Sequence record: PV845595.1
DNA from: Pseudomonas phage Ph_15
Length of the DNA stretch: 43,260 nt
Reading direction: 5' to 3' (one strand)
Under the pieces are notes generated by a model, which was given only the letters and a program-made list of their open reading frames with translations, was not told the origin of the DNA and ran no database searches. Position numbers and translations under genes: made by a program. Shown here in pieces: positions 1-380 of the stretch. Positions within the stretch are counted from its first letter, which is position 1, and each line of letters starts with the position of its first letter.

Positions 1-20
1 TCAGGCTATAGTGGTCATAT

Positions 21-140
21 TGGTAGGGGGTTAAAAAATTCTTTATTATTAGGGGGTATATAGGGGAATAGGGAATAGGGATTCATAGGGGATAATAATT
101 ACAGGGTAGCGGACTATTATAAGGAGGGGGGGCCACCCCT
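21..140. repeat. G-tract array on the plus strand, repeating (A/T)TAGGG(G) units: GGTAGGGGG, TAGGGGG, TAGGGG, TAGGG, TAGGG, TAGGGG, CAGGGTAG, GGAGGGGGGG. Canonical G-quadruplex motif at 52-91.
   Basis: Read directly: G runs at 26-30, 52-56, 63-66, 71-73, 78-80, 88-91, 104-106 and 126-132, separated by short AT-rich spacers. The region is noncoding. Confidence 0.7.
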
Positions 141-179
141 AAACCTACCTCGGCCGACTTTGAGATTGTTTCAGAAAGT

Positions 180-229
180 TTGAAAAAACATTGAAAAAAC
201 CTTGGGCCAAAACCTTGGGCAACCTTGAC
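180..229. repeat. Two direct TTGAAAAAAC A-tract repeats (180-189, 191-200) followed by three ACCTTGG(G)C-type repeats (198-208, 211-220, 221-229). These are the reverse complement of the CCAAGGT repeats at 43100-43176.
   Basis: Direct reading. Inverted relationship to the window-end repeats verified by reverse-complementing. Confidence 0.7.
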
Positions 230-267
230 TCCCGATTGCACGTAACCACGGCCAATTTTACGAATAA

Positions 268-297
268 TTAACCAGGGACCAGGACTATTAACCAGGG
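268..297. repeat. Direct repeat TTAACCAGGG x2 (268-277 and 288-297), 20 bp apart.
   Basis: Direct reading. Confidence 0.6.
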
Positions 298-330
298 GGC
301 TAGGTCGAGGCTAGACTAAATAAAAGGCAA

Positions 331-362
331 TAAAAAACCCCCTGGCCTTTCGACTAGGGGGC
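331..362 (-). terminator. Rho-independent terminator for the leftward operon. Stem CCCCCT (338-343) / AGGGGG (356-361), followed on the minus strand by TTTTTT (complement of A333-338).
   Basis: GC stem plus U6 tract on the minus-strand transcript, immediately downstream of the stop of the 381..1019 gene. Confidence 0.55.
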
Positions 363-380
363 TTAGTGCTAGGTCTAGAC

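Follow-up and report, generated by a model that had tools for sequence, protein, structure and literature searches.

The record ends meet in a noncoding island

The 43,260-bp stretch of DNA analyzed here in full (Pseudomonas phage Ph_15, record PV845595.1; hereafter the window) is a complete genome. It belongs to a podophage of Pseudomonas aeruginosa of the PaP2/119X/PaMx41 type, a group placed in the genus Jamesmcgillvirus of the family Fredfastierviridae. Its structural genes lie on the plus strand, from terS, the gene for the small terminase subunit (TerS), at 2271 through that for an 1849-aa virion protein ending at 24041. A leftward arm of about 19 kb, running from 43035/43047 to 24097, codes for a helicase, an exonuclease, PolA and other replication proteins, and open reading frame 53 (ORF53) is the first gene of this early/replication arm. 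Four further small leftward genes, ORF3 to ORF1, occupy 1892 down to 381, with ORF1 itself at 381-1019 on the minus strand. Our subject is the noncoding DNA between ORF1 and ORF53, which the record break at 43260|1 divides between the two ends of the window (Table 1).

A reading made earlier from the letters alone (the sequence-only reading) had joined these ends into one noncoding island of about 580 bp inside the leftward arm and labeled it a candidate origin, packaging (pac) site or genome terminus. That the ends belong together is borne out by five GenBank records (FBPa48, 20Aug470, PaMx32, Neko and TF17, the second of which was deposited as circular), in which the junction is read without a break as ...CCTAAGTAGA|TCAGGCTATAG..., and by four contigs assembled from public runs, each whole-genome or otherwise large, that also cross it unbroken. 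The proposed length needs correction: ORF53 has two in-frame ATGs, at 43047 and 43035, of which the second has a GGAG 7 nt upstream and is annotated as the start, with a ribosome-binding site (RBS), in PaMx43. The true start is probably 43035, and the island is therefore 12 bp longer at this end than earlier stated, at about 605 bp in all. None of the small ORFs within it is conserved among ten relatives.

The island is as well conserved as a coding gene over much of its length. Over bases 1-1200 of the window, identity is 95-99% with 13 of the 15 GenBank records that match and 90-95% with the remaining two; over the final 961 bases it is 88-95%. Among the ten relatives, positions 7-277 are nearly invariant (variability 0.5-2%, apart from the block 199-238 at 7%), a level of conservation equal to that of ORF1. 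Variation is concentrated in three stretches, namely 43209-6, 43123-43145 and 278-317, the first of which contains the record break. This break is shared: the two ends of the window coincide with those of PaP2, PaMx33, PaMx35, PaMx43 and PaMx46, 119X and PaMx41 are linearized at the base homologous to window base 1, and eight GenBank records in all are opened at this point.

Table 1. Coordinates of the features of the island and of the region upstream of terS
Feature	Position	Strand	Remarks
Right half of island	43036..43260		upstream of ORF53; contiguous with base 1 in relatives
Left half of island	1..380		downstream of ORF1
Right array, six (CT)ACCTYGRC(C) copies	43076..43173	-	CCTYGR cores at 43077, 43102, 43113, 43125, 43146, 43166
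Candidate sigma-70-type promoter for ORF53 (best match), TTTACC-18-TACAAT	43093..43122	-	9/12; embedded in right array
G-run block GGTAGGGAAGGGGGTAGGGGTAGG	43169..43192	+	G4Hunter 2.12, second highest in genome
Variable patch	43209..43260, on to base 6		two allele types among relatives; variability 0.155; contains record break
TAGGGG-type G-run array	22..133	+	includes canonical G-quadruplex motif 52-80 and 7-bp tandem GGGAATA 64-81
Perfect TATAAT, no good -35	115..120	-	24 bp downstream of innermost left-array copy; invariant in relatives
Left array, four copies of CCTYGR motif including CCTACCTCGGC	144..230	+	cores at 148, 200, 213, 223
TTGAAAAAAC twice, then AAAACC	180..210	+	three A-tracts at 183, 194, 207, 11 and 13 bp apart
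TTAACCAGGG twice and AGGGGGCTA	268..301	+	variable stretch, variability 0.23
Intrinsic terminator T1 of ORF3-ORF1 unit	331..362	-	fold -20.6 kcal/mol, then U-run UUUUUUAUUGCCUUUU
CTAAYCYTGG four times, exact 10-bp period	1989..2030	+	just upstream of ORF3 promoter
G-rich hairpin (2060-2098), then TATCATATACC-N-AAATTTCTAAACTTTT	2060..2138	+	window copy of family-wide element (2100-2138)

Two opposed arrays of one motif

Every repeat listed by the sequence-only reading is present at the place it gave. On the right side of the island GCCGAGGT occurs at 43076 and 43124, GGCCAAGGT at 43100 and 43144, and GGTCAAGGTA at 43111 and 43164; on the left side CCTACCTCGGC occupies 144-154, AACCTTGGGC occurs at 198 and 211, AACCTTGAC at 221, TTGAAAAAAC at 180 and 191, and TTAACCAGGG at 268 and 288. 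Directly repeated 8-mers are far in excess of expectation: the junction holds 36 distinct ones, as against 6.4±3.3 in dinucleotide shuffles (none of 1000 reaches 36), and its direct-repeat density is the highest in the genome. The motif ACCTYGRC, for which 3.2 genome copies are expected, has 15, with eight of them within the junction.

The large inverted-repeat architecture that had been proposed survives in part. The two halves do carry clusters of the same motif in opposed orientation, and the 11-mer CCTACCTCGGC, which has only two genome copies, at 144 and 43076, is mutually inverted between them, the copy at 43076-43086 being the exact reverse complement. However, the number of inverted 8-mers in the junction (10 versus 5.2±2.8) is reached by 74 of the 1000 shuffles and is not significant. 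The 'inverted architecture' is, then, a single motif clustered twice, in opposed orientations, plus a single 11-mer pair. Across the genome, inverted 8-mer pairs peak elsewhere, at 41550-41900 inside ORF52 (22 in 578 bp, the mean being 4.7).

Cores in the right array lie 25, 11, 12, 21 and 20 bp apart and those in the left array 52, 13 and 10 bp apart, such that the ten CCTYGR copies overall are separated by 10-13, 20-25 or 52 bp, roughly multiples of 10.5 bp; the island thus has the at least three helically phased repeats by which iterons are recognized. The opposed arrays stand 234 bp apart and flank a G-run-rich core of 231 bp (43173-143). Of the phased A-tracts that had been noted, the tracts themselves are there but number only three, and they run into CCTTGG motifs. 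Copy number varies through indels: the GCCGAGGT/GGCCAAGGT pair at 43123-43145, which comprises two motif copies, is deleted in six of the ten relatives, and the second TTAACCAGGG copy is deleted in PaMx41, PaMx32, 20Aug470 and Neko.

We also considered an invertible promoter switch between the 11-bp inverted repeats and rejected it, as a single orientation is seen in 16 of 16 genomes and no recombinase is annotated. An Rfam search of contiguous junction loci gave no match at gathering score, a tRNA search found none, and no DNA similarity between the island and plasmids was found.

G-runs, terminator and promoter candidates

The core is strand-asymmetric, with a GC skew of +0.41 at a GC content of 44% (about 45.5% genome-wide). 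Its G-quadruplex motif at 52-80 is the only canonical one on the plus strand of the genome, and the four top-scoring G4Hunter windows all fall in the island or in the intergenic region upstream of terS. The GGGAATA tandem has one extra unit in PaMx32. AT-only patches are short, at 10-21 bp (30-50, 92-101 and 43194-43205).

The minus-strand terminator recognized by the sequence-only reading is real. T1 is annotated as a terminator in PaMx43 and PaMx41 and is either invariant or altered in a base-pair-preserving manner in the relatives. Within the right array, the TTTACC and TACAAT hexamers of the promoter candidate for ORF53 are unchanged in ten relatives. The TATAAT at 120-115 is a candidate second leftward promoter, judging from its letters and invariance, and a weak rightward match, TTGGTA-18-TATTAT, lies at 20-49.

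Three further proposals for this part of the island failed. A hairpin at 43207-43226 would make a second terminator, but folding each allele shows no conservation. The CCTTGAC motifs were rejected as tandem -35 boxes, as none of the copies in the window has a -10 at a distance of 16-19 bp. Finally, use of hairpin promoters by a virion RNA polymerase finds no counterpart in the 1849-aa virion protein, which lacks DxDxD and has no Pfam or PDB match.

A conserved position with lineage-specific repeats

The proteins flanking the island are uninformative for distant comparisons, since searches with ORF53 and ORF1 found only near-identical phage homologues or two short contigs. Searches with the large terminase subunit (TerL) recovered a large IMG/VR family together with Polaromonas phage Tiera, EBPR podovirus 3 and Aeromonas phage P5. 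A sister lineage is represented by L025, whose TerL and ORF1 are 59% and 44% identical to those of the window, and by the activated-sludge contig L093. At the syntenic place these contigs carry 9-12 copies of CCTT(T)GA on the plus strand and none on the other, spaced 10, 11, 10, 15, 19, 30, 10, 11, 31 and 10 bp apart; the array is followed by expanded G-run arrays of the AGGGGGCT type and by the same terminator-ORF1 layout as in the window, including an equivalent of T1. Because the motif and its helical phasing are kept where the noncoding DNA of L025 and L093 is otherwise unalignable, they constitute a phylogenetic footprint.

These two independent metagenomic contigs also start no more than 6 nt apart (L025 1-20 and, on the reverse strand, L093 2177-2164), at GGGGGT|AGCATACTTTGACC, which is the inner edge of the CCTTGA array next to a G-run. 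The shared edge may be either a physical end or an assembly break at the G-run.

Further away, the position is retained while its repeats are replaced. L079 has three copies of GAAAAAACCCTTGAAAAC, related to the A-tract repeats of the window, and an inverted repeat of 75 nt enclosing a core of 210 bp; in Tiera a G-rich sequence of 72 bp is perfectly repeated in tandem, with a diverged copy inverted across a core of 227 bp; and L072 has its own 20-bp repeats. Matches to sigma-70 promoters in these islands are good: Tiera has one of 12/12 and one of 10/12, L072 has a leftward one of 10/12, and L079 has one of 10/12 whose -35 forms part of a AAAAAACTCTTGAAA repeat. Among the 22 loci with enough flank for comparison, 14 show a peak of short-repeat density where the leftward arm begins, 1.9-3.4 kb upstream of TerL. 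By our own count, the three windows densest in G- or C-runs include at least one in the island-equivalent or terS-upstream region in 22 of 24 loci, and most of the distant relatives checked keep a clustering of G-runs at the island position. Island repeat sequences are lineage-specific, while the position of the island is conserved across the phage family.

A second array and a conserved element upstream of terS

The stretch from the ORF3 promoter to terS (1893-2270) is the only other large control region of the genome. It contains a strong leftward promoter for ORF3 (TTGACT-16-TAGAAT, 10/12, 1965-1938), beside which stands the strictly periodic CTAAYCYTGG array; its motif is related to that of the island and is otherwise rare in the remaining intergenic regions. 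The same region holds CCCTAACCCACCCTCGGCC, a near copy of 137-155, and, at 2229-2253, the only G-quadruplex motif on the minus strand of the genome.

Nearer to terS, 130-170 bp upstream of it, lies a noncoding element conserved family-wide, with the core TATCAATAG-N10-TTTCTAAACTTTTT. It is tripartite, comprising a G-rich hairpin with a T-run, then TATCAATAG and, after about 10 nt, AAATTTTTCTAAACTTTTT. We found it in 37 of 59 family loci, including phages with only about 40% TerL identity (e.g. L022 45270-45327 plus 1-40, and L025 1985-2075). The Tiera record, which was rearranged by its authors after a PhageTerm analysis (PMC9959647), begins inside this element at TATCAA|TAG, and L017, a contig of a close relative from a public run, ends at window 2109, 4 nt from the start point of Tiera. 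An N-terminal helix-turn-helix (HTH) of TerS (..SPSYISQL..) is conserved in 42 family loci, and as it is conserved family-wide its target is expected to be conserved too. On these sequence grounds the terS-upstream element is a better candidate for a pac site than the island, and it falls near terS, the very location that the sequence-only reading had named as counting against its own proposal. It could equally be a late promoter, as its two boxes are about 18 bp apart.

A proposed control island heading the early arm

The island is a real, conserved and as yet uncharacterized regulatory-type island of a known general kind. As to which kind, our tentative preference is for an intergenic control island, bounded by a terminator and heading the leftward early arm, whose phased arrays bind a lineage-specific protein. 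T1, a strong terminator, ends the ORF3-ORF1 unit, and weak leftward promoters in or near the arrays would restart transcription toward ORF53. The arrays would serve as sites for an oligomerizing, lineage-specific DNA-binding protein, phage-encoded and probably early, which would line one face of the double helix and might bring the two arms together in a loop. This complex might set the activity of the putative leftward promoters at 43122-43093 and 120-115, and, via the terS-proximal array, the same protein could couple early and late expression. The untranslated C-rich minus-strand transcript of the core, together with T1, may insulate the two leftward units from each other.

Several observations favor this control role. 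The island lies between a terminator and the first gene of a long leftward arm, a related array stands beside the ORF3 promoter, and the top G-run sites are found in both control regions. It thus shows two of the features expected of a region controlling transcription: a terminator of the upstream unit and a motif that recurs in related form at another promoter, that of ORF3. The footprint in the sister lineage, the peak of short-repeat density at the equivalent place in 14 of 22 loci and the 10/12 to 12/12 promoter matches in distant islands also speak for it. Repeats that vary between lineages, next to a TerS HTH that stays constant, fit a fast-evolving regulator/operator pair. Operators of the lambda CII type consist of direct repeats at a 10-bp period. 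Like phage operator arrays of this sort, the island presents TTGG-N6-TTGA and CTGG-N6-TTGG at a periodicity of 10-11 bp, its arrays overlap or precede weak promoters, and related motifs occur at two control regions. It differs from CII promoters in the geometry of the repeats with respect to the -35 and -10 hexamers and in that no regulator gene was recognized.

A number of points weigh against a control role. The promoter matches in the island are weak (9/12) and no more numerous than expected from shuffles. The right array and the terS-proximal array are not alike in how the motif is oriented with respect to the leftward promoter closest to each. No array-binding protein was identified; the genes flanking the island are orphans, and the AlphaFold models of ORF53 and ORF52 are unusable, with predicted local distance difference test (pLDDT) scores of 36-37. 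Moreover, phased iterons flanking a core suit an origin or a terminase-binding region equally well. By analogy with the left-end region of T7, the island may in addition take part in replication or end formation; either of these as its primary role is not supported by the tests run here. Control, a collapsed terminal repeat and an origin need not exclude one another.

Alternative roles in end formation, replication and maintenance

The first alternative is that the record break marks a concatemer junction in which a direct terminal repeat (DTR) has been collapsed by assembly, with the virion ends in the island near base 1 and the arrays forming part of the terminal region; the early promoters would then sit just inside the end that enters first. 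We regard this as unlikely, even though it explains several observations. The seven named records with the same or a homologous start base are consistent with it, as is the onset of high conservation about 7 bp from the record start, and so are the sister-lineage contigs that stop at the inner edge of the array. Shea was reported with 'terminally redundant' ends by PhageTerm, with no coordinates. The genome of PaMx41 has reportedly been described as linear and terminally redundant. However, later records may merely copy the start of PaP2, and contig breaks at G-runs can be technical. Indeed, we rejected inference of physical ends from contig ends, as breaks in close relatives are scattered (182, 1985, 2109 and 5526). 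A terminal repeat occurs in no deposited record of any member, and whole-genome contigs all read through. The PhageTerm analysis of Tiera reported no DTR, and its record starts near terS rather than in the island.

The terminase points both ways. The only curated family matched by TerL is the T7-type TerL NF033889 (E-value 1.5e-9), but at 37 bits this is far under the cut-off of 150. TerL has no Pfam or PDB sequence match, and its weak tblastn matches are to Mu-like headful TerL proteins and to the DTR phage Kuura; TerS is annotated as Sf6-like. Fixed ends that are not redundant (cohesive, i.e. cos, or blunt) are excluded at 43260/1 because contigs run through the junction.

The anatomy of the T7 concatemer junction is very similar to that of the island. 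Both place several hundred bp of noncoding DNA upstream of the early genes. The T7 junction, with 738 bp of noncoding DNA, has 13 copies of CCTAAAG, comparable to the 7-9-bp repeat arrays of the island, as well as G5/C5 runs and promoters in both directions, and like the island it has ACCTTGAG-like triplets and CCCTTGGG strings. Named promoters in the T7 region are A0, phiOL and A1-A3, and its heptamer arrays are SRL and SRR. Nonetheless, the T7 repeats all point one way around a demonstrated 160-bp terminal repeat, whereas the arrays of the island are opposed; the T7 early promoters are of consensus strength whereas the candidates in the island are weak; and the two regions have no sequence homology. 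The T7 terminal repeat (L088 70-150) contains GACCTTGAGGG, GACCCTTGGG, TACCTTGAGTG and CCCCCATAGGGGG, which resemble the CCTTGR motif and G-runs of the island, perhaps by coincidence.

The island might instead be a replication origin, with a phage initiator that binds the two opposed iteron arrays and a core between them that is opened; past the putative rightward promoter at 20-49, the G-rich non-template strand could further stabilize an R-loop that primes PolA. This, too, we hold to be doubtful. Satellite phage P4 has octamer iterons, direct and inverted, at two loci, ori and crr, which are bound by its alpha primase-helicase. The island is reminiscent of this arrangement, and of iteron origins such as lambda ori, in its helically phased 8-9-bp repeats in both orientations. 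Further likenesses to P4 may be seen in the related array about 2 kb away, in the lineage specificity of the repeats, as expected of initiator-iteron co-evolution, and in a phage-encoded helicase of the D5/DUF3987 type. Inverted arms enclose a core of similar size in three lineages (234 bp in the window, 227 bp in Tiera and 210 bp in L079), the replication arm adjoins the island, which has short AT-only patches, and genes for PolA and an RNase H-like protein are present in the phage. 119X was noted to lack a recognizable primase (PMC4889955).

Set against this, the core is not AT-rich and, unlike iteron origins, shows no clear AT-rich unwinding block, only the short AT-only patches; there are no DnaA boxes, and the island resembles no plasmid DNA. 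No initiator was identified, nor a link between an initiator and the iterons, the DUF3987 protein giving only a weak C-terminal match. Nor is the strand composition supportive. Cumulative GC skew is lowest at 41039 and highest at 24134, and AT skew is lowest at 41871; the junction is a small local maximum of cumulative GC skew without an origin-type inflection. As the sequence-only reading had itself named skew minima elsewhere as counting against an origin, its origin reading is unsupported, with the caveat that phage skew mostly follows transcription. In this genome, too, skew mostly tracks gene orientation, but between 41 kb and 1 kb it is anomalously positive. In that stretch of about 3-4 kb (41000-43260 plus 1-1000) GC skew is positive despite all genes being on the minus strand, opposite to the remaining leftward arm, and the genome-wide GC-skew maximum (+0.37) falls within ORF53, in the 578-bp window from 42781.

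A more specific variant, which we consider quite improbable, is a transcription-primed origin in a phage family without a recognizable primase, where the opposed arrays would keep the region open and rightward transcription across the G-run array would form an R-loop or a G-quadruplex hybrid of some stability. The RNase H-like enzyme and PolA could then turn this structure into a leading-strand primer, in the manner of ColE1 or of the mitochondrial conserved sequence block (CSB).

Still less probable is a centromere-like or plasmid-maintenance site used in an episomal carrier state, or repeats that are functionless products of slippage in a spacer. Shea persists as an episome and PaP2 has been called temperate, a relative occurs as a separate contig in the assembly of a P. 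aeruginosa isolate, and indels change the copy number; however, no ParA/ParB-type gene appeared in annotations or searches, and the persistence of motif and helical phasing in a lineage with otherwise unalignable noncoding DNA argues against neutrality. The contig in question (L019; GCA_024351565.1, DAIHHN010000053.1, 43,251 bp) is a full-length, near-identical phage, which fits the episomal carrier state of Shea and the 'temperate' label of PaP2.

Weakest of all is a pac site for the small terminase with recognition sites on either side of a cleavage core, as in pacL-pacC-pacR of SPP1: the two opposed arrays around a core, the A-tract bends and the N-terminal HTH of TerS recall that system, but the island lies 1.9 kb and four genes from terS, its repeats are lineage-specific while the TerS recognition helix is conserved family-wide, and the element that is conserved family-wide (2100-2138), at which the PhageTerm-ordered Tiera record begins, adjoins terS instead. 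Overall, the functional label given by the sequence-only reading is not established, and a pac site and a skew-defined origin are disfavored.

Features of the neighboring genes

On the ORF1 side, a plus-strand ORF of 224 aa at 366-1040 is antisense to ORF1; it is probably spurious, since ORF1 is favored by the terminator on the minus strand, by its annotated RBS and by a homologue in L025. Between ORF1 and ORFa, a 27-nt imperfect inverted repeat at 1092-1158 forms a real hairpin, whose sub-threshold match to Rfam mir-26 in three relatives is due to chance. On the ORF53 side, a run of AGGATT/TTAGG hexamers on the plus strand at 42953-43005 codes for a linker of low complexity rich in Pro and Asn, PNPNPQPNPNPG, close to the N-terminus of ORF53, and varies among relatives. 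The intergenic region between ORF52 and ORF53 contains, at 42226-42329, a 22-nt inverted repeat, ATAATTAATCTCCCTGGAATAG / CTATTCCAGGGAAGTTAATTAT, with 91% complementarity and 60 nt between the arms; a leftward promoter match (9/12) at 42353-42325 adjoins it.

Implications

PaMx41-type phages are a standard model for work on the cyclic-oligonucleotide-based antiphage signaling system (CBASS) and anti-CBASS and are candidates for therapy, and yet some 70% of the genes, along with the whole of the control DNA, are uncharacterized in these phages. The island is the most repeat-dense stretch of the genome and among its best-conserved noncoding stretches, and its position is conserved across a family recorded from many metagenomes. 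Whether it acts as an early switch, an origin or a chromosome end decides how such phages can be rebooted from synthetic DNA, engineered and minimized. The conserved element adjacent to terS offers a concrete second target for locating the start of packaging. Finally, the function of the island could explain the turbid plaques and the episomal carrier state reported for PaP2 and Shea.

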